From IMG/VR virus record IMGVR_UViG_2541047739_000012: a stretch of 41,441 nucleotides of DNA; one strand, 5' to 3'. Position 1 is the first letter of the stretch, and every line of letters starts with the position of its first letter. The DNA is from a virus (lineage: Duplodnaviria > Heunggongvirae > Uroviricota > Caudoviricetes). Of this stretch, positions 10,261-40,550 are shown one piece after another. Made by a program: the position numbers and the translations under genes. The notes under the pieces are model-generated. The model saw only the letters and a program-made list of their open reading frames with translations, did no database searches and had not been told where the DNA came from.

Positions 10261-10616
10261 CAGTGAGTGACCTCTTCAAAGGTACAGTTAAAATCGGTAT
10301 ACATGGCATTATCCGAAATGCTCCACTCCCTGCAGACAACCCGGACAGTCCTGTTGTGTTTTGGCGGACGCCACAAAAAAGCACAAATCCCGGCATGACG
10401 GGATAAAAAACTGTCCAGCGCGGCACGGGAATATTCATCTGTGACACGAAATACCGGTTTAAACGTTTTCAGATCCGCATTCAGACCACCAGCCCGTCGC
10501 TGTTCATATCCGTCACCAAACTTTACCGTAATAACTGATGGCTTTCGTATCGTCTCCATCCCCTCACGGGGGATCCAGTTAAAAACTTCAGGCTCAGGCA
10601 CTGTACAATCCTCCAT
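10260..10616 (-). CDS. M: minor tail protein M
   Basis: ORF track 10260..10646 starts at TTG; first ATG at 10614-10616 (MEDCTV...), alternative ATG at 10557-10559 (METIRK..., preceded by GAGGGG). Conserved VKFGDGYEQ motif as in lambda M (VRFGDGYSQ). Start is uncertain. Confidence 0.65.
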   Translation of the reverse strand: MEDCTVPEPEVFNWIPREGMETIRKPSVITVKFGDGYEQRRAGGLNADLKTFKPVFRVTDEYSRAALDSFLSRHAGICAFLWRPPKHNRTVRVVCREWSISDNAMYTDFNCTFEEVTH

Positions 10617-27875: not shown

Positions 27876-28931
27876 TCATGCTTTCCACTTCAGGACACCC
27901 GAATTTCTCGCGTGCATTAAAAAACGAATCAGCAACAACAGCTGGCTGCCGTGTTTTTCTTCAAAATCTTTTACCCCGGCGTGCAGTTCGTTATGACATT
28001 TACGGCACAGCGGAATAACAAACAAATCATCAGCCTTTGTTCCCATCCCTCCCAGTCCATGACCAATGATGTGATGCGGATCATCTGCCTGATTGCCACA
28101 CGTCATGCATTTCTGCGTTTTTACCCAACGCGTGTATACAGGCATCTCTTCCCGTTGTGATTTCTGGCGCTGGAGATACTGAGCCGGTGACTCCGGATCA
28201 ACGGCAATGCTGACCACCGTCTTTTCCTGTGGCGGGTTTTGCTGGTGGGCGTGAGGCAGCGGCGCAAGATTTTTTGTGCGCTGCTTCAGTATGCTGGCGG
28301 CGGTCTGCTCTCCCGGTACGATGTCGCTTTCACGGTACATTGAGCGGATTTTTTCCGCACGCAACCCCAGCGAACGACGTAATACCGCTTCCGGTAGCGC
28401 GTCCGCCACCTGATTGCGGACCGCCCACCAGGATAATTCAGCCAGAGATAATTCACGCTCCTGCGTACCGCTTATTGCGTGACCGATGACGTCAATCATC
28501 CATGCTGACAGGTTTTGATGAGCAAGTTGCTCGAGTGATTCGGATGTCTGGTCACGCAGCTGGTTGTCGCAGTGCCAGCACAACACCATTGCGCCGGTAC
28601 CATAACGGTGAATAACGGTTTCGCTGTGATGATAATCGCCGTGTGGCCACTGGCAGGATTTAATATGGCGCAACAGCCAGTCAGACAATGCACCAGCACC
28701 ACCAGCAGCACGAATTACCCGTGCGTTACTGAAAAACGGCAGCAATGTTTTGTCTTCCACCAGCGGCTGGCGAACGGCAGGAACGACCCCGGACGGCAGA
28801 TTACGCATGCTTTTCGGTTCCGGCTCCACCAGTACCCGGGTATTGTGAAATACCGGCATGGATTCACGGCCCGGCTTAACGACCACCAGCCCGAGTTCCG
28901 GTACCAGAACAGGTCGAAGTAATACCCGCAC
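27876..28931 (-). CDS. DUF968-like nin-region protein with C-terminal Cys/His motif
   Basis: 351-aa ORF (GTG at 28929-28931; alternative ATG 24 codons in); C-terminal CMTCGNQADDPHHIIGHG...CRKCHNELH resembles an HNH/zinc-binding module; gene order resembles the Qin prophage quuQ-ydfU block. Confidence 0.55.
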   Translation of the reverse strand: MRVLLRPVLVPELGLVVVKPGRESMPVFHNTRVLVEPEPKSMRNLPSGVVPAVRQPLVEDKTLLPFFSNARVIRAAGGAGALSDWLLRHIKSCQWPHGDYHHSETVIHRYGTGAMVLCWHCDNQLRDQTSESLEQLAHQNLSAWMIDVIGHAISGTQERELSLAELSWWAVRNQVADALPEAVLRRSLGLRAEKIRSMYRESDIVPGEQTAASILKQRTKNLAPLPHAHQQNPPQEKTVVSIAVDPESPAQYLQRQKSQREEMPVYTRWVKTQKCMTCGNQADDPHHIIGHGLGGMGTKADDLFVIPLCRKCHNELHAGVKDFEEKHGSQLLLLIRFLMHARNSGVLKWKA

Positions 28932-28932
28932 G

Positions 28933-29211
28933 TTACCTCCAGATGCGTTGCTGGAATGTGCGAGACGGACGCGGTGGGCGTTCAGAGTAAGGAAGCCTGA
29001 CGGAGATTATCCAGTGACGATAATCGAGGCTGAGGGCTTTCTTAATCTCGTATCCGTGTCTGCGGTAGCACTGAATTAGCCACTCGGCCTGCTCTTCAGT
29101 GCATGGGTCATGCTGGAACCAGTCAGATTTGAAAGTGCGGGAACGCCGCCCGTGCCTGCTGGCAAAGACGGCAGAATCATAAGAATTGTGTAATTTGGTA
29201 TCGTGCGCCAT
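28933..29211 (-). CDS. hypothetical nin-region protein
   Basis: ORF track 28933..29292; ATG at 29209-29211 (MAHDTKLHN...) gives 92 aa; stop abuts the next gene's start. Confidence 0.45.
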   Translation of the reverse strand: MAHDTKLHNSYDSAVFASRHGRRSRTFKSDWFQHDPCTEEQAEWLIQCYRRHGYEIKKALSLDYRHWIISVRLPYSERPPRPSRTFQQRIWR

Positions 29212-29283
29212 CGGTTGTCTCTGCTGGCGCAGCAGGTGCCAGTTGTTCAGGCTGGCGTGCGAATTGTAAACCAGAATGCCAGG

Positions 29284-29309
29284 AAAAAACAAAACCCGCC
29301 GAAGCGGGT
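29284..29309 (-). terminator. intrinsic terminator downstream of the lipoprotein gene
   Basis: Minus strand: stem ACCCGC / GCGGGT with TTCG-type tetraloop, followed by TTTTGTTTTTT. Confidence 0.6.
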
Positions 29310-29507
29310 ATGCTAAAACAAACTGAAAGTAATATACCGGACTTGTAAAGGAACGATAGAATAATTATTGGATTAAACCCTGACTCAATCCAGATTTCAT
29401 AGGCAACAACTACGGACTAATCATCACAGTCATGTTTGATAGGCTTAGTCCGCATTGGGTGAGGGTTTACGGCGTTTTCACTAATAATTTATCGTCCAAG
29501 CTATACA

Positions 29508-29900
29508 CTACTGCCCTGTTTTAACGAAGTTTTTAAAGGAAACAACTGCCTGATAGGGGTTTGGTTGACAGCCAAACATATTATCGCAAAAAGGCTTGAT
29601 GAAAATTCTTGAGGATCCATCTTCATTTGGCATTTTACTCACTTGATAAGCGAGGAATGGACTATTTGGAGAGGGATTATAAGTGGAAATTAGCGTGTCT
29701 GTCGCCGTTTGAATTTTCCATGAGGAATTATTAGCCAACCAGAATTGCGCTCGTTTCCAATAAAAGTCACATTGCTTTTCATCATTACATGTTAGTGGCT
29801 TCATTGCTTCTGCTTTCAACGCTGGATCGACCTTTGCTGCACACCCTCCCAACATTACTGTTGCAATCATTACACCTGCGACTAAAACAAGTTTCTTCAT
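29508..29900 (-). CDS. lipoprotein (moron)
   Basis: 130-aa ORF with signal peptide and lipobox (MKKLVLVAGVMIATVMLGGC), several Cys; strong SD GGGAG; bracketed by terminator-like hairpins and AT-rich intergenic DNA. Confidence 0.7.
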   Translation of the reverse strand: MKKLVLVAGVMIATVMLGGCAAKVDPALKAEAMKPLTCNDEKQCDFYWKRAQFWLANNSSWKIQTATDTLISTYNPSPNSPFLAYQVSKMPNEDGSSRIFIKPFCDNMFGCQPNPYQAVVSFKNFVKTGQ

Positions 29901-30043
29901 CTCCCTGCCCCATCAATAAAAGTTCGGTTCTCTAATAACTAGAGTTAATCAACGGAAAAAACGCCGAAGCGGGTTAAGTGCGGGTGCGTTGAGGATGCCT
30001 GACACATCAGAGGTGGCGAGGGATTTCTCCCCCGCCTGGTCTC

Positions 30044-30199
30044 TTACTCCTCAGGTTCGTAAGCTGTGAAGACAGCGACCTCCGTCTGGCCGGTTCGGAT
30101 TCGTACCTCGCAGAGGTCTTTCCTCGTTACCAGTGCCGTCACTATGACGGTTAAACAGATGACGATCAGGGCGATTAACATCGCCTTTTGCTGCTTCAT
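30044..30199 (-). CDS. hok: Hok/Gef-family type I toxin
   Basis: 51-aa frame MKQQKAMLIALIVICLTVIVTALVTRKDLCEVRIRTGQTEVAVFTAYEPEE; single TM plus the conserved RKDLCEV motif. Confidence 0.85.
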   Translation of the reverse strand: MKQQKAMLIALIVICLTVIVTALVTRKDLCEVRIRTGQTEVAVFTAYEPEE

Positions 30200-30256
30200 A
30201 GCCTGCTTCTCCTTGCCTTTCGGCACGTAAGAGGCTAACCTAGATTTGCCGTTCAT
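30044..30256 (-). CDS. mok: Mok-like leader frame (in-frame N-terminal extension of hok)
   Basis: 70-aa ORF from ATG 30254-30256 encompassing hok in frame, as for chromosomal mok/hok pairs. Confidence 0.55.
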   Translation of the reverse strand: MNGKSRLASYVPKGKEKQAMKQQKAMLIALIVICLTVIVTALVTRKDLCEVRIRTGQTEVAVFTAYEPEE

Positions 30257-30490
30257 AGATTGAGCCTCAGATTAATGTTAAGCGTCTTGCAGGACGCGTA
30301 ATGTTAACTGGGGCTTTTCTCTATCTGCCTTTTGGTGTTCATGCCTGAGACAGATAGCCTCAAGCACCCGCTGCAATTCTACTTAACTCTCCTTTTCCCG
30401 CAAACCGTTTTTATCCCCAGCGGCAAATCGAATACACCACCAGCGCCACAGCCATTGCGATTCCTGCCGTTGTAAATGCCTCAGGCCAGG

Positions 30491-31006
30491 TCATCGTAAA
30501 ACATCCTCCACGCTTATCAGTCCATTTCGTTTCAGGTAATCCATCGCCATCTCCGGTAATTTGCAGTCTGGATTAGCTTTTTTCAGTTGACTGACCAGTC
30601 GTTTAACCCACATTGTTAATTCGCCAACCTGATTACTGGATGCTAGTGGATTGTCGGCTTTACCCAGAATGACAGCACAGCAGGCCTCTTTGAGTACCCA
30701 ATCAACAGCATCTTTCCATGCTCCTGTTTCGACTGGTGGATTCTCACGCTTTACCTGTTCATAAAAGCGCACGGCTTTAACCAGTCCTTCTGATATCACA
30801 GGGACTGGCGGGGTAGTGAATAAGGCCTGAATCTCATAGCCCGGCCTGTCGTTGCACCCCTCTTTTGTCGGTACATATTTCCAGTCACCAACCCACATCT
30901 TCTCCTGAAAGTCCGTAACGCCTTTTTTCACGTAGCGATATCGCCATGCAACTGGTTTTGCCTGCCCTGCCGTTTCATGCCCTTCCTGATAATTAATCTC
31001 GCTCAT
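30491..31006 (-). CDS. hypothetical early protein
   Basis: 171-aa ORF (MSEINYQEG...), ATG overlaps the upstream stop (ATGA); no motif recognised. Confidence 0.55.
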   Translation of the reverse strand: MSEINYQEGHETAGQAKPVAWRYRYVKKGVTDFQEKMWVGDWKYVPTKEGCNDRPGYEIQALFTTPPVPVISEGLVKAVRFYEQVKRENPPVETGAWKDAVDWVLKEACCAVILGKADNPLASSNQVGELTMWVKRLVSQLKKANPDCKLPEMAMDYLKRNGLISVEDVLR

Positions 31007-31179
31007 TCATCGCCCCACTCATCACAATATGCTTCGACCGGAGTTTTTCCTGCTTCGTAGTCATCACGCCAGGCTTCAGCATCAGCAGCACTTCCACCAC
31101 GTAACTCTGCATAGTCCATTAACAGTTCATGCCATTCTTCAAAACTGACGTTGTATTTAGTTGAACCAAAATCAGCCAT
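31003..31179 (-). CDS. small acidic protein (58 aa), not in the ORF track
   Basis: ATG 31177-31179 to TGA 31003-31005, translating MADFGSTKYNVSFEEWHELLMDYAELRGGSAADAEAWRDDYEAGKTPVEAYCDEWGDE; overlaps both neighbours. Confidence 0.5.
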   Translation of the reverse strand: MADFGSTKYNVSFEEWHELLMDYAELRGGSAADAEAWRDDYEAGKTPVEAYCDEWGDE

Positions 31180-31354
31180 TTTGTTCTTCCTCTTCGTCTT
31201 TTATTTCGTGATATGAGTAATTGCAGTAGTTAAAGAAAATTTCTTTTGCTTCGTCATGAATTTCATCAGGTGTTGCGTCATCGTCCACTTCGAATACATC
31301 CTCAAAATCTCCACCAGCTATTCCCGTTTCAATAATTATTTTGAACTTTCGCAT
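31172..31354 (-). CDS. small acidic protein (60 aa)
   Basis: ATG 31352-31354 with SD AGGGTGG; sequence rich in Asp/Glu (DFEDVFEVDDDATPDEIHDEAKE...KDEEEEQNG). Confidence 0.5.
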   Translation of the reverse strand: MRKFKIIIETGIAGGDFEDVFEVDDDATPDEIHDEAKEIFFNYCNYSYHEIKDEEEEQNG

Positions 31355-31447
31355 TTCACTACCACCCTTTCGGGTGGCCTCCTGCTGTTCTGAGGGTGCA
31401 GAAATCCCTCCGGTTAAGGATTAAATTTTTAACAGTGCTAAATTTAA

Positions 31448-31804
31448 TTATTCAGTTCTGGATTTTGTCACCCTGCGTATCCGTGCTTTCGCATTACGCT
31501 CAATCTGAATTAGCTTTTCTATATTTTTTCGCCTTTCCTGTTCCTCCTGGCGCAATAGTTTTACATCATCTGCCAGTCTGGTTTCTCTTTTCGCCACAGA
31601 GAGCATCCAGTCAAATGGCTCCACAACTGCACCGCAGATTTTACAGCGGACCTGACGCTCTTTTTCGTCAACCCGGACAGAAGCGTGATGGCAGTATGGT
31701 CTTTCCGATGGCTCATAAAGAAAATTAACCTGATTACGTGGGTCATCCTCTTTTACCGGAAATAAAACAATATTACTTAACTCATCTTCTGGTTTTATTT
31801 CCAT
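31448..31804 (-). CDS. hypothetical protein with Cys/His zinc-ribbon-like motif
   Basis: ORF track 31448..31861 (GTG); ATG at 31802-31804 (MEIKPEDEL...) has a strong SD AAGGAGAGGAG; motif CHH...CKICG. Confidence 0.5.
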   Translation of the reverse strand: MEIKPEDELSNIVLFPVKEDDPRNQVNFLYEPSERPYCHHASVRVDEKERQVRCKICGAVVEPFDWMLSVAKRETRLADDVKLLRQEEQERRKNIEKLIQIERNAKARIRRVTKSRTE

Positions 31805-31861
31805 GCTCCTCTCCTTTGATGCGAATGCCAGCGGCAATTGAAGCCTGATAGCTAATTTCAC

Positions 31862-32284
31862 TTACAGTACCGCCTCCTGAAAATTACCCTGATAGAAAGC
31901 CAGTACACGCTGCATAGCTTCGCTCTTCCGGCACTCGCGACAGATTATATTCAGGCGCCTGTCGTAGCGGCGTATTTCTCCGTCTGGTAATGACCAGATA
32001 AGGTCCGGATCAACCGCAGATGGTTTCTTCGGCTTTGCCCTTGAGAGCTTTTTACGGGCATTTTGCCAGTCCTTACGCGCCTGTTCAGACGGGAATAACC
32101 CGTAACCAGAGTTGTATACATCGCCACTGGCAACCAGCTCTCTGGCCAGAACGCTCATCAGATATCTTGTTGCCCCAGTTTTAGTTTCCAGTTGTCGTAA
32201 CGTCTCGCGCCCACTCTGGCGTACGAGTTCAACAACCTGCCCTTTAATTTTTTCCCGCTCTTCTTGTGTAAAAACTTTTGCCAC
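31862..32284 (-). CDS. hypothetical early protein downstream of the replication gene
   Basis: 140-aa ORF with GTG start preceded by AGGAGGG; basic, with CRECRK near the C-terminus. Confidence 0.5.
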   Translation of the reverse strand: MAKVFTQEEREKIKGQVVELVRQSGRETLRQLETKTGATRYLMSVLARELVASGDVYNSGYGLFPSEQARKDWQNARKKLSRAKPKKPSAVDPDLIWSLPDGEIRRYDRRLNIICRECRKSEAMQRVLAFYQGNFQEAVL

Positions 32285-32324
32285 AAGCCCTCCTGAAAAT
32301 TACCTCATGACCAGAAATTAACAC

Positions 32325-33395
32325 TTACCCCCTGAAGCCCGGCGGAATTTCGTTATCCGGTTCAGAAATATGATTCACACAACGCTGGTTGTTCGTGCCG
32401 CTTACCGGGAGCAACCAGGGGTTCTCAAAATTCCGGTCCGGTCCAAAAAACGTCGTCGCTCGCTGAACAAATTCCGTTCCCGTTTTCCCGGTAGCCGCCA
32501 AGTATCTTGCGTAACGCCTCACGCCATCCAGCATGGCCTCTGGTGGCACCCCCTCGCGTAATCTGGCCTTCCAGGCACTGAAAGCGGATTTCTTCGGGTT
32601 TGCTCCGGCACGCAACGGGTACTCCCGCCAGACCTGTTCGAACACATCCGGATAATCCACTCGTCCCACAGACTGCCCGGTGCTTTCCGGGACTACCCGA
32701 TCGGCTTCCCGCTGAATGGCGGAATCGGCTTCAGGCTGCTGCAGTTGGTGTGATTGCTCCGGCCTTGCGGTCATCACCTGCTGCACAGCGCCCGAATCGG
32801 CTTTCAGCGCATACGCTGAATCGGCTTCCGGTGTCGTGCCTGCTGGCTGACCAGGATTGACGGTCTGAACATCCCCTGCCTGGTTCGTGGCGTTTTTTAC
32901 GCCATGGACCATAGTGTTTTGATCTTCTTGATCTGTATCTTTATCTGTATCTTTATCTGTCGTGACTCGTCGTGACATGTGCGTGACATTTCGTGACGCG
33001 CCGTGACAATCGCCATTTTGTTCCCGCTTTCTTTCCCTCTCTCGCTGCGCCCTCTTGCGCTCTGCAGGAGATTTTGCGGTTTGCGAAATATTGCCGTTGT
33101 CCTCTTTAAGCACCTGGCGTTTTTCCCATCCAGTGATTAAATCACCATCAAGTACCCGCCCCTGCATCGTCTGCAAAATTGAATCAATTACCTCTTCTGT
33201 CACGTCGAGCGCACTTGCCAAATCTTCTGTCGTGACATCAATGTGACCTCGCGTGACATTTCGTGACGCGCTCACCAGGAGGTGGATATACACTGCCATC
33301 ACTGTTGCAATTGGCTGCCCTGACACCCTGGCAATTGTTCGCCACTTAGGGTCATTTGGCATGTCATGCCATAATCTGAGCCAGGCGTTAGCCAT
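32325..33395 (-). CDS. replication initiation protein (O-like) with origin iterons inside the gene
   Basis: ORF track 32325..33401; ATG at 33393-33395 (MANAWLRLWHDMPNDPKWRTIARVSG...) with SD AGAGGTGAG; contains two iteron clusters in its coding sequence; sits in the lambda O position after the CII-like gene. Confidence 0.6.
   Translation of the reverse strand: MANAWLRLWHDMPNDPKWRTIARVSGQPIATVMAVYIHLLVSASRNVTRGHIDVTTEDLASALDVTEEVIDSILQTMQGRVLDGDLITGWEKRQVLKEDNGNISQTAKSPAERKRAQRERERKREQNGDCHGASRNVTHMSRRVTTDKDTDKDTDQEDQNTMVHGVKNATNQAGDVQTVNPGQPAGTTPEADSAYALKADSGAVQQVMTARPEQSHQLQQPEADSAIQREADRVVPESTGQSVGRVDYPDVFEQVWREYPLRAGANPKKSAFSAWKARLREGVPPEAMLDGVRRYARYLAATGKTGTEFVQRATTFFGPDRNFENPWLLPVSGTNNQRCVNHISEPDNEIPPGFRG
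32921..33007. repeat. origin-like repeats: AT-rich tandem repeat plus five ~10-bp-spaced CGTGAC iterons
   Basis: atctgtatcttt repeated 2.5 times (32931-32960), then CGTGAC at 32961, 32971, 32982, 32992 and 33002 (spacing 10-11 bp). Confidence 0.65.
33229..33270. repeat. second iteron cluster (GTGAC repeats)
   Basis: CGTGAC/TGTGAC at 33231, 33243, 33252 and 33262; the 20-mer gcgtgacatttcgtgacgcg is repeated exactly from the first cluster (32981-33000 and 33251-33270). Confidence 0.65.
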
Positions 33396-33466
33396 ACTCA
33401 CCTCTTTTGATACCGAATCTTTTTACTCACAAATTGCCGGAAGTGATCCGGTATGAATATTGCGAG

Positions 33467-33892
33467 TCAATGCACAGCCACAATATTTCCTGCAGGGCCA
33501 CCACGATTCATCTGGTTGAAACCAGCGATCGCCACTGCGACAAAATCATCAGCGTCTCTCACCAGTCGTTCCCGCGTCTCCACTAGTTCCCGAAAATAGG
33601 CTGAGCTATGACTGCGCATTCGGGCCACCAGCAGAGGTGGCATTGCTTTTTCGATAGCTGGTAACAACGCCTGAATTTTTTTAACCGCATCAGGGGTGTC
33701 TTTCTCCACCCAGCGGAAAATTTTCTGAGTATTGCGAGCCAGGGCTTCCGGATGGCTGTCGTCATACAGTTCCGGGAACGTCATTCCCAGCTCGAAATAC
33801 GCTTTGGTAATTTTCGCAGCCGGTACTTTTTCGCCGTCCGGATGCGCCCAGGCATTCATCGCCATGCGGATATGTTCATGTTTGATTTTCAT
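33467..33892 (-). CDS. CII-like early regulator (YdaT-like)
   Basis: 141-aa ORF MKIKHEHIRMAMNAW..., ATG overlaps the cro-like stop (ATGA); recalled resemblance to Rac YdaT; occupies the cII position. Confidence 0.5.
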   Translation of the reverse strand: MKIKHEHIRMAMNAWAHPDGEKVPAAKITKAYFELGMTFPELYDDSHPEALARNTQKIFRWVEKDTPDAVKKIQALLPAIEKAMPPLLVARMRSHSSAYFRELVETRERLVRDADDFVAVAIAGFNQMNRGGPAGNIVAVH

Positions 33893-34116
33893 GAATCACT
33901 CTTCCTTTTGTCCCGGGTGGTATCCTTCTTTTTGTAAAGCTCTGGGTTCAAAGATAATTTTCCCTTGGAGTATGCAGCAGCTTCCGCAGCTCTCCCTTTC
34001 GGAACTATTTCACCGGGGCGCTTACGCCACATGTAAATAGCTTCGCGGGTTATCCCATAAAAATCAGCGACCCTCTGAACAGAGCCAAAAAACTGAACAA
34101 GTTCATCAACTCGCAT
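33889..34116 (-). CDS. cro: Cro-like HTH repressor (YdaS-like)
   Basis: 75-aa ORF with helix-turn-helix (FYGITREAIYMWRKR), ATG 34114-34116 with SD AGGAGAG; divergent from the cI-like gene. Confidence 0.65.
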   Translation of the reverse strand: MRVDELVQFFGSVQRVADFYGITREAIYMWRKRPGEIVPKGRAAEAAAYSKGKLSLNPELYKKKDTTRDKRKSDS

Positions 34117-34212
34117 TTTACTCTCCTAAAATCTAAGTATTTTTAGATTACAGGATAATTTTTTTTAGGTCAATGCAATCTAAAATAATTTATATTCAAC
34201 TCGCGGGAGAAA
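34117..34212. promoter_or_regulatory. immunity switch region: divergent promoters and operators
   Basis: Palindromic operator AATCTAA-gtattt-TTAGATT (34129-34148) and a weaker second site; minus-strand TTGACC-17-TAATCT promoter for cro overlapping the operator; plus-strand -10 TATATT upstream of cI. Confidence 0.55.
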
Positions 34213-34860
34213 ATGATGGAAAGCCTTGGCATCAGGCTTAAGAAACTCAGAAAAGATAAGGGACTCACCCAAGTAGAACTGGGTAAGCTTTCAGGCGTGA
34301 CTGGGGTTACTATAGGGTACTGGGAGAAAGATCTAAACGAACCCGGCAGCAAAGCTCTAAGTAAGTTAGCCCAGGCATTAGGAACTACTGAGTCCTATCT
34401 CCTGTATGGAGTATCGTCTCCTGAACTATCTTTTGTGCAGAGCAATCCAGGCACCAAGATCCCCTACTTTTCGTGGGGTGACGCGATTTCTTTCCTAATC
34501 TTAGAAGGAGAGAAAACAATGGGAAATGTCGATAGGATCACCACATTCTTTGATGTAGTGGAAGGTGATTTTGCCGTTTCAATGCCTGATGACACTATGC
34601 ATAACCCCTCAGGGTCACCAAGTATCCCGGTTGGTGCCACTGTGATCCTAAGACCAGGAGAGAGTTATAAAAATGGCAGTATCGTCGCTGTAATAGTTCC
34701 AGATCCACTTACAAATGAACCGTCTATGACTATAAAAAAATTAGTTATTGATGGAAAACTTGTGTATTTAAGCCCTCTCAATCCGCGCTATCAATCATCC
34801 TTGCTTACGCCAGAGTGTAAAATTGTTGCCGTAGCAAAAGGTGTGCAGTTCAACCTATAA
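34213..34860 (+). CDS. cI: CI-like repressor (N-terminal HTH, C-terminal S24 LexA-like peptidase domain)
   Basis: 215-aa ORF; HTH (LTQVELGKLSGVTGVTIGYWE) and a C-terminal region with S24-type features; divergent from cro across the operator region. Confidence 0.75.
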   Translation: MMESLGIRLKKLRKDKGLTQVELGKLSGVTGVTIGYWEKDLNEPGSKALSKLAQALGTTESYLLYGVSSPELSFVQSNPGTKIPYFSWGDAISFLILEGEKTMGNVDRITTFFDVVEGDFAVSMPDDTMHNPSGSPSIPVGATVILRPGESYKNGSIVAVIVPDPLTNEPSMTIKKLVIDGKLVYLSPLNPRYQSSLLTPECKIVAVAKGVQFNL

Positions 34861-34882
34861 CCCTGCTATGTCCTTGAACTTA

Positions 34883-34908
34883 AGGTCGGTTATGCCGACC
34901 TTTTTTTT
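34883..34908 (+). terminator. intrinsic terminator after cI
   Basis: Stem GGTCGG / CCGACC with 5-nt loop, followed by TTTTTTTT. Confidence 0.75.
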
Positions 34909-34913
34909 AAATT

Positions 34914-34962
34914 AATTTAGATTCCCCTTGACTATAAAACTAAATACTTTTAGATTTATTGC
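34914..34962 (+). promoter_or_regulatory. PL-like early-left promoter with operator half-sites
   Basis: -35 TTGACT (34928-34933), 17-bp spacer, -10 TAGATT (34951-34956); TTTAGATT-type half-sites at 34916-34923 and 34949-34956 match the cI/cro operator arm. Confidence 0.5.
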
Positions 34963-35137
34963 ATACCAACCCACCCCGCCCCACAGAACGCCGGGCAATA
35001 CTTCGAGTTACCAGGCAGTGGTCAGGGGTTAAGTAGCCAGCCCGAGGCGTAAGAACATGACGGCAGGGTTCAACTTTAATAACTATGCAGCAGGTTTTTG
35101 TTCCGCTACCCCGGCGTTAAGGGGAAATGAGGTCAAC

Positions 35138-35293
35138 ATGGATACTATCGATCTTGGCAACAACGAATCTCTGGTGTACGGCGTGTTTCCCAACCAGGAC
35201 GGCACATTCACCGCGATGACGTATACCAAAAGCAAAACGTTTAAAACCGAAAATGGTGCCCGTCGCTGGCTGGAAAGAAACTCAGGTGAGTGA
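35138..35293 (+). CDS. small hypothetical early-left protein
   Basis: ORF track 35057..35293; internal ATG at 35138 has SD GAGG; 51 aa; first gene after the PL-like promoter. Confidence 0.4.
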   Translation: MDTIDLGNNESLVYGVFPNQDGTFTAMTYTKSKTFKTENGARRWLERNSGE

Positions 35294-35294
35294 T

Positions 35295-35423
35295 ATGGAT
35301 TTCGACACAATCATGGAAAAGGCTTACGAAGAATACTTCGAAGGCCTTGCCGAAGGCGAAGAAGCTCTCAGCTTCAGTGAGTTTAAACAGGCGCTTTCCA
35401 GCTCGGCAAAATCTAACGGCTGA
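35295..35423 (+). CDS. small acidic hypothetical protein (42 aa), not in the ORF track
   Basis: ATG at 35295 four nt after the upstream stop, with SD GGTGAG; translates MDFDTIMEKAYEEYFEGLAEGEEALSFSEFKQALSSSAKSNG. Confidence 0.35.
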   Translation: MDFDTIMEKAYEEYFEGLAEGEEALSFSEFKQALSSSAKSNG

Positions 35424-35452
35424 TAAGCGAAGCAGCACCGCGAGGAATCAGT

Positions 35453-35671
35453 ATGCAGAAACGAGAACCCGTCATCATCGCGCCAGACTATACCGATGAT
35501 GAACTTTATGAGTGGATGCGCCAGAAAATTAATGCAGCGCAGGATCTGAAATGGGCCAATGAAGCCAGGGCTAAGCAGGCTGAAAATCTGTCCGCTCTGG
35601 AGCAGGATATCACCAGGCTGGAAAAAGCAGCGGCATTAAGCATTGCCAGAATGATTACATACCCGCGTTAA
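35453..35671 (+). CDS. small hypothetical early-left protein
   Basis: 72-aa ORF with SD AGGAAT; predicted helical/coiled-coil (…LSALEQDITRLEKAAALS…). Confidence 0.45.
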   Translation: MQKREPVIIAPDYTDDELYEWMRQKINAAQDLKWANEARAKQAENLSALEQDITRLEKAAALSIARMITYPR

Positions 35672-36224
35672 TAGCTAACCAACGAAGCTAAGAGTTCTCC
35701 ACGGGTGAGGTGGAGTGCGTGCGCCGGACACGGGTGAGCATCCGGCACTGACAGTTTACTGAAAGGATATTTCCATGAAAAGTCAGACCATAACGCGAAA
35801 GCGCACGGCGAGGTAGCTGGTTCATAGATAGCCTGTCGTTAAATTTTCGTCGACCGTGCGCTTCCGGTTGTGGCACTCCGCGAAATGGCGCGGCGGTAAG
35901 TATGGCGGGGTTATTCCTTCCCCGTTGAGGACACCGGGTTGTCAGGTTGACCATACGCTTAAGTGACAACCCCGCTGCAACGCCCTCTGTTATCAATTTT
36001 CTGGTGACGTTTGGCGGTATCAGTTTTACTCCGTGACTGCTCTGCCGCCCTTTTTAAAGTGAATTTTGTGATGCGGTGAATGCGGCTAAGCGCACGCGGA
36101 ACAGTTAAAACCAAAAACAGTGTTATGGGTGGATTCTCTGTATCCGGCGTTAATTGTTAACTGGTTAACGTCACCTGGAGGCACCAGGCACCGCATCACA
36201 AAACTCATTGTTGAGGGCGCGATA

Positions 36225-36413
36225 ATGAAAACGTTATTACCAAACGTTAATACGTCTGAAGGTTGTTTTGAAATTGGTGTCACTATCAGTAATCCTGTAT
36301 TTACTGAAGATGCCATTAACAAAAGAAAACACGAACGGGAGTTATTAAATAAAGTATGCATTGTTTCAATGCTGGCCCGTTTACGTCTGATGCCAAAAGG
36401 ATGTGCACAATGA
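36225..36413 (+). CDS. small hypothetical protein
   Basis: Internal ATG of ORF 36120..36413 with SD GAGGGCG; 62 aa; stop overlaps the next start (ATGA). Confidence 0.4.
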   Translation: MKTLLPNVNTSEGCFEIGVTISNPVFTEDAINKRKHERELLNKVCIVSMLARLRLMPKGCAQ

Positions 36414-36601
36414 ATCCAGTATTTGCACTTATTCTGACGGTTTTTCTTGTTTCCGGAGAGCCAGTTGATATTGCAGTCAGTGTTCACAGAACAATGCAGG
36501 AATGTATGGCAGCAGCAACCGAACAGAAAATTCCAGGCAACTGTTATCCGGTCGATAAAGTTATTCACCAGGATAATAACGAAATCCCGGCAGGATTTTA
36601 A
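36410..36601 (+). CDS. small exported or membrane protein
   Basis: Internal ATG of ORF 36356..36601 with SD AAGGA; 63 aa with hydrophobic N-terminus (MNPVFALILTVFLVSGEP) and three Cys. Confidence 0.45.
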   Translation: MNPVFALILTVFLVSGEPVDIAVSVHRTMQECMAAATEQKIPGNCYPVDKVIHQDNNEIPAGF

Positions 36602-36694
36602 AACAGCACCGTAATAAATATCCAGTTTCATTCTTATATGTCAGCAATGGCAGAGATTTGTTCACCCTTAAATCTGTGATGAGGTTTACCAATA

Positions 36695-39121
36695 ATGAGC
36701 ACTGATAAAGAAGAATTTGCACTATATTGCGAAGCAAAAAATGACAAAGTAAGAAAACGCCTGGGAATTAAAGGTGGTTTTTACTGGACTACAGCAAAAA
36801 AATTATCTGTTGCAATCTCCCGCTGCATTACCGCAATGGATGACAACGATTATGATGAAGACGACTTTAAAAAACCCGTCCGCGTCAATTTGCCCGTTGT
36901 TGACGACCTTCCGCCAGAAGGCGTGTTTGATACTGAATTCTGCAACCGCTATGAAAAAGGCGGGAAAGATGGCATCACAATGACATTTATCGGCCCTTCC
37001 CCCTCTGTTCGGGACAAACCAGCCAGCACTGACAATACCAACATCAACGGCGAAGACATGACTGAGATTGAGGAGAGCATGCTTCTGCCTGTCTCCGGTC
37101 AGGAACTGCCCATTCGTTGGCTTGCTCAACACGGCAGCGAAAAACCAGTAACGCACGTTTCACGCGACGAACTCCAGGCATTACACATTGCACGGGCTGA
37201 AGAACTACCGGCTGTTACTGCTCTGGCTATTTCGCATAAAACCAGTCTGCTCGACTCGCTGGAGATTCGCGACCTCCACAAACTGGTTCGTGACACTGAC
37301 AAAGTTTTCCCTAATCCTGGTAATTCAGACCTGGGACTAATAACTGCTTTTTTCGAAGCATACCTGGACGCTGACTACATTGATCGGGGTCTGCTGACAA
37401 AAGAGTGGATGAAAGGAAATCGTGTTTCACGCATCACCCGCACGGCTTCCGGTGCTAATGCTGGCGGTGGGAACAAAACCGATCGCAATCCGAATTTAGT
37501 ACACACCCTCGACACACTGGATGTGGAGATTGCAGCAGCCACACTTCCGGTGGATTTTAATATTTATGAAATTCCGGGCAGCGTTTATCGTCGCGCAAAA
37601 GAAGTAGTCCTGAAAAAAGAAAGTCCGTTCAAAGAATGGTCCGCAGCACTTCGTGCAACCCCGGGTATTCTGGACTATTCCCGCGCCGCTATTTTTGCAC
37701 TTATCCGAAGCGCACACCCTGAATTTTATCACTACCCGGGACGCCTTCAGGGGTATATCAACGCCTATTTGACGGAAACTGATCACGAGAACCCCAGCAA
37801 GGAAACTCTCACAGCTGCCCGGCATACGCCGGAAAAAGATATCCTGGAAGAAATTAACCGCGAGGTGGTTACTGAACGTGAAACAGAGGAAGAAAAACCA
37901 CAACCATCTGACGCAATGGCAGGTGAACAGGCAACAACTGAAACAATGGAACCGGATACAACTGAACATTGCCAGAACGCTCAGTCGCAGGTGAGTTCCG
38001 CTAACCAAGTAAAAGTCACCGCTGACGAAGTAAACAAAATTATGCAGGCAGCCAATATCAGCCAGCCTGACGCCGATAAGTTACTTGCTGTATCGCGTGG
38101 TGAATTTGTTGAGGGGATTAGCGACCCTAATGATCCGAAATGGGTCAAGGGGATCCAGACTCGCGATTCTGTGAACCAGAACCAGCATGAATCGGAACGG
38201 AACGACCAAAAAGCGGAACAAAACAGCCCAAATGCGTTACAAAACGAGCCAGAAACGAAACAATCCGAACCAGTAGCGCAACAGGAACCGGAAAAAGTCT
38301 GCACCGCCTGCGGTCAGAGCGGTGGCGGCAACTGCCCTGATTGTGGCGCGGTGATGGGCGACGCAACATACCAAGAAACATTCGATGAAGAGAATCAGGT
38401 TGAAGTTCAGGAAAATGATCCGGAGGAAATGGAAGGCGCTGAACATCCACACAAGGAGAACCCTGGCGGCAATCAGCATCACGCCAGCGATAATAAAACT
38501 GGCGAGGCGACAGATCCCTTAATTAAGGTGAATGGTCATCATAAGCTCACATCCACCAGCAGAGCGGGGATTCATCTGATGATCGACCTTGAAACCATGG
38601 GAAAAAATCCCGATGCCCCGATTATCTCAATAGGCGCAATATTTTTCGATCCACAAACCGGAGATATGGGACCGGAATTTAGCAAGACCATCGATCTGGA
38701 TACTGCTGGCGGAGTCATTGATCGTGACGTCATTAAATGGTGGCTGAAGCAATCACGTGAAGCGCAGTCTGCCATTATGACCGATGAAATCCCGTTAGAT
38801 GATGCACTACTGCAATTGCGGGAATTTATCGCCGAAAACTCCGGTGAATTTTTTGTTCAGGTCTGGGGTAATGGGGCCAACTTCGACAACGTGATTTTAC
38901 GCCGTTCATACGAACGACAGGGTATCCCCTGCCCGTGGCGCTACTGCAACGATCGCGATGTACGCACAATCGTTGAGCTGGGGAAAGCCATAGACTTCGA
39001 TGCCAGAACTGCTATCCCATTCGAAGGTGAGCGCCATAATGCACTTGATGACGCTCGTTACCAGGCAAAATACGTTTCAGCTATCTGGCAAAAACTGATC
39101 CCGAGTCAGGCTGATTTTTAA
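36695..39121 (+). CDS. large exonuclease with C-terminal DEDDh 3'-5' exonuclease domain (often annotated exodeoxyribonuclease VIII-like)
   Basis: 808-aa ORF; C-terminal DEDDh motifs (MIDLETMG; WGNGANFDNV; HNALDDARY); acidic low-complexity linker and zinc-ribbon-like CTACGQSGGGNCPDCG; located upstream of xis/int. Confidence 0.7.
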   Translation: MSTDKEEFALYCEAKNDKVRKRLGIKGGFYWTTAKKLSVAISRCITAMDDNDYDEDDFKKPVRVNLPVVDDLPPEGVFDTEFCNRYEKGGKDGITMTFIGPSPSVRDKPASTDNTNINGEDMTEIEESMLLPVSGQELPIRWLAQHGSEKPVTHVSRDELQALHIARAEELPAVTALAISHKTSLLDSLEIRDLHKLVRDTDKVFPNPGNSDLGLITAFFEAYLDADYIDRGLLTKEWMKGNRVSRITRTASGANAGGGNKTDRNPNLVHTLDTLDVEIAAATLPVDFNIYEIPGSVYRRAKEVVLKKESPFKEWSAALRATPGILDYSRAAIFALIRSAHPEFYHYPGRLQGYINAYLTETDHENPSKETLTAARHTPEKDILEEINREVVTERETEEEKPQPSDAMAGEQATTETMEPDTTEHCQNAQSQVSSANQVKVTADEVNKIMQAANISQPDADKLLAVSRGEFVEGISDPNDPKWVKGIQTRDSVNQNQHESERNDQKAEQNSPNALQNEPETKQSEPVAQQEPEKVCTACGQSGGGNCPDCGAVMGDATYQETFDEENQVEVQENDPEEMEGAEHPHKENPGGNQHHASDNKTGEATDPLIKVNGHHKLTSTSRAGIHLMIDLETMGKNPDAPIISIGAIFFDPQTGDMGPEFSKTIDLDTAGGVIDRDVIKWWLKQSREAQSAIMTDEIPLDDALLQLREFIAENSGEFFVQVWGNGANFDNVILRRSYERQGIPCPWRYCNDRDVRTIVELGKAIDFDARTAIPFEGERHNALDDARYQAKYVSAIWQKLIPSQADF

Positions 39122-39179
39122 TGTTCAACCCTAATTGCCGCTAACCGTATATAGTTAGCGGCGGTTATGAGATATAGCT

Positions 39180-39383
39180 ATGAGCAGCTTATTTTTAACC
39201 GAAGATGAATTGCTAATATTAACGGGCTGCAAATATGCAAGCCACCAGCGAAAATGGTTAATGGAAAACGGGCTTCCGTTCTATACCAATCGTAGTGGCA
39301 AACCGATTGTCAGCCGGGATCTATTTACCTGCAATAAAACTTTACCACCACGCGAGGTAGAGCCGAATTTTGGTGCGATCTGA
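39180..39383 (+). CDS. xis: excisionase-like small protein
   Basis: 67-aa ORF immediately upstream of and overlapping the integrase start (TGATG); call by position and size. Confidence 0.5.
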   Translation: MSSLFLTEDELLILTGCKYASHQRKWLMENGLPFYTNRSGKPIVSRDLFTCNKTLPPREVEPNFGAI

Positions 39384-40408
39384 TGGGAAGACGAAGGAAA
39401 AATCCTGAACACGAAAAATTACCTCCAAATGTATACCCAAATAAATATAGTTATGTATGGAAACCAACATCCAGAGAATCTGTCACACTAACCGCCATCA
39501 AGGATGGTTTAGCTGCTTTATGGAAAAAGTATGAGGAAACTGTAAATAATCGCGATCGTGCAATGACATTCGGTCGCTTGTGGGAAAAATTCCTCGCCAG
39601 CGCCTATTACAGTGACCTTAGTCCAAGAACACAAAAAGATTATCTGCAACATCAAAAAAAGTTGCTTGCCGTATTCGGTAAGGTACCAGCGGATTCCATA
39701 AAACCAGAACACATCCGTCGATACATGGACAAAAGAGGGGAGCAGAGTAAAACGCAAGCCAACCATGAAAAAAGCAGTATGTCCCGTGTTTACAGTTGGG
39801 GGTATGAGCGAGGGTACGTGAAGGCTAACCCATGTGCAGGTGTAAGTAAATTCAAGGCCAAAAACCGCGAACGATATGTAACCGACAAAGAATACCAGGC
39901 AGTATTAAGCGTTGCACCTCTTCCTGTTTTTATCGCAATGGAAATTGCCTATCTGTGTGCAGCGAGGGTTTCCGATGTGTTATCGCTGAAATGGGAACAG
40001 ATTGGAAACGACGGGATATTCATCCAGCAAGGGAAAACCGGAAAAAAACAGATAAAAGCATGGAGTCCACGATTACAGGCAGCGATCGAAAAAGCAAAAC
40101 AGTTACCAAAATCTGCCTATGTGATCAGCAATCAATACGGCAACCGATATATGTACAAAGGCTTTAACGAAATGTGGGTAGAAGCAAGAAATCGCGCAGG
40201 CAAAATTTCAGGTATTTTAACCGACTTCACCTTTCATGATCTGAAGGCGAAAGGAATTTCAGACTATGAAGGAAGCAGCCGGGATAAGCAACTTTTCTCT
40301 GGTCACAAAACCGAAGGGCAAGTGCTAATCTATGACAGAAAGGTTAAAGTTTCACCAACACTTGATGTCCCGTTACCTGAAAATATTCCAAGAAAATATT
40401 CCAAGTAA
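39383..40408 (+). CDS. int: tyrosine integrase
   Basis: 341-aa ORF with an N-terminal arm-binding-like basic region and a C-terminal catalytic domain (…HDLKAKGISDY…, …LIYDRK…); adjacent to a tRNA gene. Confidence 0.9.
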   Translation: MGRRRKNPEHEKLPPNVYPNKYSYVWKPTSRESVTLTAIKDGLAALWKKYEETVNNRDRAMTFGRLWEKFLASAYYSDLSPRTQKDYLQHQKKLLAVFGKVPADSIKPEHIRRYMDKRGEQSKTQANHEKSSMSRVYSWGYERGYVKANPCAGVSKFKAKNRERYVTDKEYQAVLSVAPLPVFIAMEIAYLCAARVSDVLSLKWEQIGNDGIFIQQGKTGKKQIKAWSPRLQAAIEKAKQLPKSAYVISNQYGNRYMYKGFNEMWVEARNRAGKISGILTDFTFHDLKAKGISDYEGSSRDKQLFSGHKTEGQVLIYDRKVKVSPTLDVPLPENIPRKYSK

Positions 40409-40460: not shown

Positions 40461-40550
40461 TGGCGGAGAGAGGGGGATTTGAACCCCCGGTGGAGTTGCC
40501 CCCACTCCGGTTTTCGAGACCGGTCCGTTCAGCCGCTCCGGCATCTCTCC
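40461..40550 (-). tRNA. serU: tRNA-Ser (anticodon CGA), host gene serving as prophage attachment site
   Basis: 90-nt minus-strand cloverleaf with long variable arm: acceptor GGAGAGA, anticodon arm CCGGT-CTCGAAA-ACCGG, T-loop TTCAAAT, CCA; its 3' end faces the integrase 53 bp away. Confidence 0.85.

Follow-up and report, generated by a model that had tools for sequence, protein, structure and literature searches.

A mosaic exonuclease encoded late in the early-left operon of an Escherichia coli lambdoid prophage joins the N-terminal region of RecE (exonuclease VIII), its front two-thirds, to a nuclease domain of a different fold. The gene lies at positions 36695-39121 (+) of IMG/VR record IMGVR_UViG_2541047739_000012, a 41,441-nucleotide stretch of Caudoviricetes DNA referred to below, at its full length, as the window. 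With a probability of roughly 0.6, we read its product as an early-left nuclease that would trim 3' ends of DNA for a phage working with the host RecBCD-Chi-RecA pathway, and not as one half of an exonuclease-annealase pair. In the open reading frame (ORF) listing of the window the gene is a single intact, ATG-started ORF of 808 amino acids, and it shares 99.7% identity with an annotated gene in E. coli XDL. Curated-profile matches down to ~1e-277, together with this near-identical annotated gene, place the ORF far beyond chance as judged from its sequence. We also considered whether the gene might be a pseudogene; we rejected this in view of its intact ORF, its conserved catalytic residues and its presence in phage isolates.

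RefSeq lists the gene under several names ('exonuclease', '3'-5' exonuclease', 'RecE family exodeoxyribonuclease' and at times '3'-5' exoribonuclease'). By the matches described below, the database habit of calling such proteins exonuclease VIII or RecE needs correction, as the nuclease they carry is of another fold and probably of opposite polarity. The gene is known as a sequence and its module type has been catalogued; the combination of a RecE head with a DnaQ/DexA-type nuclease was catalogued in 2025, and its function is a prediction.

A DEDDh exonuclease domain at the C-terminus

Pfam recognized two significant domains in the 808-residue protein, Exonuc_VIII (PF06630) and the Rv2179c-like DEDDh family (PF16473). 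The latter aligned residues 627-798 with positions 2 to 177 of its 177 and scored 223 bits, the cutoff being 27 (E 2.7e-66). All five catalytic residues are present: D631 and E633 in motif I (MIDLETMG), D731 in motif II (GNGANFD), and H781-x4-D786 in motif III (HNALDD). MAFFT shifts motif III by 4 residues relative to phage T4 DexA, and equivalence at this position was taken from the H-x4-D motif. Across 12 domain sequences that are 52-84% identical to the query domain, the catalytic residues are invariant or nearly so. AlphaFold2 modeled residues 620-808 at a predicted local distance difference test (pLDDT) value of ~90, with strands and helices in the order expected of a DnaQ fold.

The sole solved relative of this domain found in the PDB was T4 DexA (8KEL/8KEN), which was detected at E 2.6e-5 with the single sequence and at 1e-16 with a profile. 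Rv2179c, the founder of PF16473, was not reached at E<=0.01 by either the sequence or the profile search. These results bear on whether the protein might act mainly as an RNA 3'-5' exonuclease like Rv2179c, directed at phage or host transcripts such as the RNAs of dicBF-type operons. PF16473 is defined as an exoribonuclease family, some of the RefSeq names follow it in this, and the small RNA (sRNA) DicF comes from the same operon. However, the profile search detected a DNA exonuclease rather than Rv2179c, the DEDDh domain stands in for a DNA nuclease on the RecE scaffold, and nothing ties the protein to DicF processing. We regard RNA as an improbable principal substrate.

The relationship to DexA likewise raises the question of an HREX/EcD-type defence or superinfection exclusion, in which a DexA-like exonuclease made by the lysogen would digest the 5-hydroxymethylcytosine (5hmC) DNA of T-even phages. 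DexA is the closest solved relative, and Kang et al. (2025, PMC12153337) report that EcD, an E. coli homologue of DexA, digests T4 DNA and, when carried on a plasmid, protects cells. In contrast, several features of the 808-residue protein and its gene speak against such a role. Of the residues linked to 5hmC recognition in that study, DexA W152 pairs with C751 and D169 falls in an insertion that is absent here, the D169 half of this comparison being the less certain because the alignment is gapped there. EcD has Ala78 in place of the DexA tetramer residue D90, which is kept here as D703. The termini of EcD (MIDTET...TIPETY) differ from those encoded here, so EcD is not this protein; none of the proteins compared had EcD-like termini, and a search of viral contigs with the primer-derived 3' end of EcD matched one unrelated contig, by chance. 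The gene lies in a repressor-controlled early-left operon and not at a moron position expressed in the lysogen, phage isolates keep it at the recombination-module position, and no PADLOC model matched the exonuclease. We consider a defence function of this kind unlikely.

The remainder of the protein corresponds to the N-terminal region of RecE

PF06630 ('Enterobacterial exodeoxyribonuclease VIII') scored 125 bits at residues 57-189, above its cutoff of 25 (E 4.9e-36). The NCBIfam equivalog for exonuclease VIII, PRK09709, aligned residues 1-611 with positions 1-603 of its 877 (E 3e-277); since the final third of the model finds no counterpart, its score of 922 bits lies under the equivalog cutoff of 1269. 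In BLASTP against K-12 RecE, residues 58-610 corresponded to RecE 50-591 at 58% identity, with long stretches exceeding 90%. This alignment takes in the acidic linker and the CxxC...CxxC motif, both of which, on this evidence, are inherited from RecE and are no new addition. The Pfam family of the RecE PD-(D/E)XK nuclease, DUF3799 (RecE ~600-866), was not found in the 808-residue protein, whereas K-12 RecE itself matches it. Taken together, these alignments identify residues 1 to ~610 as the RecE N-terminal region, with the C-terminal PD-(D/E)XK 5'-3' nuclease of RecE swapped for a DEDDh domain.

An earlier interpretation made without database searches (the sequence-only reading) had confined the DEDDh motifs of the 808-residue ORF to its last ~200 residues, had described the middle as acidic with a zinc-ribbon-like motif, and had recognized no motif in the N-terminal ~450 residues. 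The first of these agrees with PF16473 at 627-798 and its five catalytic residues, and the second with the composition of the segment, its CxxC pairs at 536 and 547 and its mostly disordered prediction. The third does not stand, as this part of the protein is the RecE N-terminal region by PF06630, by PRK09709 and by its 58% identity to RecE.

An AlphaFold2 model of residues 1-440, built on a 90-sequence alignment of 50%-identity representatives, had a mean pLDDT of 87.1. In the model, a small alpha/beta unit (~1-100) is linked by a disordered loop (102-111) to a body made up of helices that extends to ~395. The predicted fold of the N-terminal ~400 residues found no match among solved structures. 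A conserved RTASGANAGGGNKTDR loop was considered as a Walker A motif and rejected: its spacing is wrong, and inspection of the BLASTP alignment shows Leu in RecE at the position of the Lys. In RecE, the N-terminal region is dispensable for basic activity and enhances linear-linear recombination, while recombination function is carried by, and satisfied with, the PD-(D/E)XK nuclease part (PMC11611040).

The tether between the two folded parts is shared with RecE. Glu, Gln and Thr are enriched at residues 371-445 and 501-625, pLDDT falls below 50 at ~487-534 and 542-619, and the segment holds a short helical motif (~443-467) and a conserved SRGEFVEGISDPNDPKW stretch. The Cys4 knuckle, CTACGQSGGGNCPDCG, gave a weak Pfam DZR match (E 0.09) and was modeled at low confidence; it is present in RecE, and it was not found in the more distant DEDDh fusions.

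No annealing partner was recognized and Chi sites are in excess

Searches with Pfam and PHROGs of the sizeable ORFs between 25.5 and 40.4 kb found no member of the RecT, Bet, Erf, Sak, Gam or Abc2 families and no single-stranded DNA-binding protein (SSB). With the same resources, RusA was the only other recombination-related gene recognized in the early region. No annealing protein is annotated in near-identical loci. In every relative examined, the DEDDh gene directly precedes xis-int without an annealing protein; these relatives are the phages Tritos and HannyBb and the distant fusions P0131, P0162 and P0137 (32-47% identity, on other contigs). In Rac, recE and then recT stand ahead of xis-int, and in a distant PD-(D/E)XK member a 271-residue ORF comes next.

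These searches support the view of the sequence-only reading that no bet/gam-like partner lies nearby, and with it the description of the recombination module as atypical. That reading had named as its contrary case a RecE-type N-terminus accompanied by an adjacent annealing-protein gene; the RecE-type N-terminus is present and the adjacent gene was not found. Whether 'recombination module' is the right label for the gene is uncertain, because a 3'-5' exonuclease cannot perform the 5'-3' resection of RecE.

The same observations allow us to weigh whether the protein is a true RecE equivalent, the exonuclease half of a RecET/Red-type recombinase whose annealase went unrecognized or is encoded elsewhere. 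Its 58% identity to RecE over ~550 residues, its occupation of the RecE position in Rac-like prophages and the common database names 'exodeoxyribonuclease VIII' and 'RecE family' are what such a protein would show. However, the part that is missing is the PD-(D/E)XK nuclease, which suffices for RecE recombination, and the 3' strand, on which an annealase depends, is the one that a DEDDh enzyme breaks down. Neither the window nor five related contexts contain a single-strand annealing protein recognizable by Pfam or PHROGs, and the PRK09709 score falls short of its equivalog cutoff. RecE equivalence is, in our estimation, very improbable.

The window contains 17 Chi sites (GCTGGTGG) compared to 1.43 expected from shuffles, and 0 of 100 shuffles reached 17. 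The late-gene (top) strand carries 15 of them and the opposite strand 2; the exonuclease gene contains one (38553-38560) and xis another (39242-39249). An oriented Chi excess is a signature of lambdoid phages that lack both a recombination system of their own and a RecBCD inhibitor (PMC12315714).

A possible role in support of RecBCD

On the reading we prefer, the protein would be made from the pL promoter after induction or infection and, by analogy with its family, would act as a Mg2+-dependent exonuclease that takes nucleotides off DNA 3' ends. It would not form half of a Red/RecET-type exonuclease-annealase pair; for recombination-dependent replication, the phage would instead draw on the RecBCD-Chi-RecA pathway of the host together with its own RusA. 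Use of RecBCD-Chi has been proposed for phages without their own recombination system (PMC12315714). We hypothesize that the most plausible specific role is to trim 3' tails on phage DNA ends, leaving them blunt enough for RecBCD loading; alternatively, and still within this reading, the enzyme may act on intermediates of replication and recombination. The trimming role agrees with E. coli genetics: reloading of helicases at DNA ends is limited by 3' tails, which 3'-5' single-stranded DNA exonucleases remove (Dermic et al. 2017, PMC5592934). By trimming, the enzyme could thus leave the ends of phage DNA open to RecBCD. The RecE-type N-terminal module would bring the nuclease to the target or partner that RecE uses.

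A more general form of this idea, which we put forward as improbable, treats the RecE-type N-terminal domain as a self-contained module without structural relatives, by which Gam-less lambdoid phages would cooperate with active RecBCD rather than block it; the DEDDh version would trim 3' tails for RecBCD loading on Chi-rich DNA. Such a module might bind DNA ends, RecBCD or SSB, and would accept nucleases of either polarity. Both module types that include a RecE-type N-terminal region (Gifsy-1/RecET and Tritos) belong to the published 'no anti-RecBCD' class. If this is true, the phage would encode in this protein an accessory to the RecBCD pathway of its host; to our knowledge, no phage protein has been described in such a role.

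Several points weigh against the 3'-end-trimming reading. Both the 3'-5' polarity and the DNA substrate are drawn from family membership, and the family in question, PF16473, bears the name of an exoribonuclease. The activity of RecE-N::DEDDh fusions, this protein included, is itself a prediction. 3'-5' exonucleases usually inhibit homologous recombination, and a pro-recombination role is not the default expectation (PMC12315714). The absence of a single-strand annealing protein rests on profile searches, and a novel annealase among the small ORFs with no assigned function is possible. Expression from pL is deduced from gene order and a consensus promoter scan, and the function of the N-terminal region as a 'delivery module' is hypothetical, its fold having no solved counterpart.

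The gene provides a very common E. coli example of the Chi-rich, recombinase-less lambdoid phages. It raises the questions of what the conserved 400-residue RecE N-terminal domain does and why a RecBCD-Chi-dependent phage carries a 3'-5' exonuclease. Answers could bear on the design of recombineering tools and on prophage-prophage recombination in pathogenic E. coli, where several copies occur per genome.

Distribution of the gene and exchange of its parts

We compared residues 1-620 with 1.84 billion cluster representatives at 50% identity using phmmer, and 264 clusters matched at E<=1e-3. C-terminal types were assigned among the best 150 of the 264 by local phmmer typing and a Pfam scan of 40 sequences. 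Among these 150, 19 end in a DEDDh domain and 20 in a RecE-type PD-(D/E)XK domain, while 40 long members have neither domain and no other Pfam nuclease. The 40 nuclease-less members resemble the 'RecE-2' proteins named by Zheng et al. (PMC12315714).

This breadth bears on whether the enzyme could be a nucleotide scavenger, degrading host or nicked DNA to feed phage replication, with its RecE part an evolutionary leftover. Homology to DexA, whose described roles include scavenging of host DNA (PMC12153337), is the basis for this proposal. Unlike a leftover, however, the N-terminal region is conserved in at least 264 clusters at 50% identity and is confidently folded. We know of no degradation of host DNA by temperate lambdoid phages, which counts further against scavenging, and we judge it to have very little chance of being correct.

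A homologue search with residues 1-420 returned only entries that were at least 99% identical, mostly partial, and from E. coli. The gene is found at 80% coverage or more in 1,071 of 5,426 complete E. coli genomes (~20%), the best match being 99.7% identical, and parts of it occur in 4,745 E. coli genomes, at a median of 2 and at up to 9 places per genome. Very many database entries for the gene are partial proteins, truncated where a contig stops. It thus resembles a repeat that co-resident prophages have in common, and is likely to take part in recombination between them and to interrupt assemblies. Phage record ON470580 splits the exonuclease gene into two annotated coding sequences.

In Tritos and HannyBb, the exonuclease has 823 residues and aligns with residues 270-808 of the protein described here, overall protein identity being 69%. 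At the nucleotide level, the match to the last ~370 codons (residues ~440-808) reaches ~93% identity. The first ~245 residues of this Tritos-type exonuclease are unrelated to the RecE-type Exonuc_VIII module. We had expected ydfE, a pseudogene of the K-12 Qin prophage, to be a remnant of a RecE-headed gene, but it has no similarity to the N-terminus of the 808-residue protein; instead, it preserves the Tritos-type head (ydfE, L016 4079-4999; Tritos exonuclease, L006 5641-8112). Since the Tritos/ydfE head is unlike the RecE-type head, at least two unrelated heads occur on the same tether and DEDDh tail.

A relative of 814 residues (L013 and L014 5001-7996) has a RecE-type N-terminus and no recognizable nuclease domain. 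Its gene is followed by one of the Sipho_Gp157 family and then by xis-int, and the protein may be one of the 'RecE-2' proteins (PMC12315714).

The prophage and its early-left operon

The window is an E. coli lambdoid prophage with its late genes on the minus strand and a Qin/Rac-like immunity region. The leftmost part of the prophage, where only tail genes lie, falls outside it. The operon runs in the order cI-like repressor, terminator, promoter-like site, ydfA, ydfB, ydfC, DicF sRNA, dicB, ydfD, exonuclease, xis and int (Table 1). By lambdoid gene order, the promoter-like site is presumably pL. Since DicF lies beside dicB, the operon upstream of the exonuclease is of the dicBF type, which inhibits cell division.

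Table 1. Coordinates of the mosaic exonuclease, its parts and neighbouring features in the window.
Feature	Coordinates	Strand	Basis
Whole gene: mosaic exonuclease, RecE-type N-terminal region and DEDDh C-terminal domain	36695..39121	+	ORF, domain matches, RefSeq 'exonuclease' gene at 99.7% identity
Folded RecE-type N-terminal region, residues 1-400 (alpha/beta unit ~1-100, all-helical part ~120-395)	36695..37894	+	
Pfam Exonuc_VIII, residues 57-189	36863-37261	+	PF06630
Acidic Glu/Gln/Thr-rich, mostly disordered tether, residues 401-619	37895..38551	+	Composition, pLDDT <50 for most, alignment to RecE 400-591
Zinc-knuckle-like motif CxxC-x7-CxxC, residues 536-551	38300..38347	+	CxxC at 536 and 547
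DEDDh domain (DnaQ-like, Rv2179c/DexA-type, predicted 3'-5' exonuclease), residues 627-798	38573..39088	+	Pfam PF16473
Span of 17 Chi sites, 15 on the minus (late-gene coding) strand	10486..39249		
RusA-type Holliday-junction resolvase, nin region	27498..27875	-	PHROG 34, E 6.7e-56; annotation of relatives
cI-like repressor (helix-turn-helix and S24 peptidase)	34213..34860	+	
Terminator-like hairpin after cI-like repressor	34882-34902		
Promoter-like site, presumed pL of exonuclease operon	34928-34956		Consensus promoter scan
Upstream early-left genes: ydfA (DUF1391), ydfB, ydfC, DicF sRNA, dicB, ydfD (DUF1482)	35057..36601	+	Includes annotation of near-identical loci
DicF antisense sRNA, between ydfC and dicB	35999-36050	+	Rfam RF00039, 76.7 bits
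Excisionase-like gene (DUF4224), directly 3' of exonuclease	39180-39383	+	
Tyrosine integrase	39383-40408	+	
tRNA-Ser(CGA) (serU), attachment site adjoining mtfA; marks prophage end	40461..40550	-	

The integrase is an intact ORF of 341 residues in the window; RefSeq marks a frameshift in it in the two complete genomes that were the closest of those examined (L001 11412-12462 and L004 26043-27093). Adjoining RusA in the nin region is a DUF968 protein (27876-28931, -), part of which is a putative nuclease of the HNH type (HNHc_6, E 1.1e-7).

The phage carries a cluster of four tRNA genes (Gly-TCC, Thr-TGT, Lys-TTT and Met-CAT; 24950-25259, -) just upstream of the lysis genes. Between this cluster and the Q antiterminator is a low-GC stretch (0.41-0.43) with an ORF of 293 residues (25556-26437, +) on the strand opposite to its neighbours. 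This ORF matched PDC-S42 (E 4.1e-27), which PADLOC lists as a candidate defence model, and PHROG 3243, a family with no assigned function, and it is possibly a defence moron expressed in the lysogen. An ORF of 143 residues beside it (26673-27104, +) had no match.

Comparison with known systems

Rv2179c of Mycobacterium tuberculosis belongs to the same Pfam family as the DEDDh domain but, according to the family description, is a stand-alone exoribonuclease. T4 DexA (exonuclease A) shares the DEDDh residues and ~32% identity with the domain; in contrast to the domain, it is a stand-alone protein of 227 residues with extra loops, encoded by a virulent phage, and its W152/D169 pair, which is tied to 5hmC DNA, is not conserved in the 808-residue protein. 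RecE of the K-12 Rac prophage is also encoded late in an early-left operon, near xis-int. The first ~57 residues of the two proteins differ, and whereas RecE ends in a PD-(D/E)XK 5'-3' double-stranded DNA exonuclease (DUF3799) followed by recT, the present protein ends in a DEDDh domain followed by xis.

The survey of Zheng, Casjens, Davidson, Amundsen & Smith (2025, PMC12315714) took in 314 lambdoid genomes from enterobacteria. No anti-RecBCD gene is present in its class B, and within this class phages of the 'Tritos' type (four in number) possess only a nuclease and lack a single-strand annealing protein; all four phages are Chi-rich, from 21/6 to 7/2 on the top and bottom strands. The same study describes 3'-5' nucleases of a DnaQ-like kind within Rec modules or close to them, often 'very near int'. 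It sorts whole phages, and the RecE-N::DEDDh protein is not dissected there. Judging from the Tritos annotation, the 'nuclease +' of Tritos would be its DEDDh protein.

By its gene content and Chi sites, the prophage described here fits the Tritos type of class B on every feature testable in the window. In its early-left operon the nuclease is unaccompanied: Pfam and PHROGs recognize there neither an annealing protein nor an SSB or anti-RecBCD gene. The Tritos type calls for at least 4 Chi sites on the top (late-gene) strand, where this prophage has 15. Its exonuclease gene also stands in the same layout as the 823-residue exonuclease genes of Tritos, HannyBb and mEp460, in which cI, ydfABC, dicF, dicB and ydfD lead into the exonuclease, xis and int.

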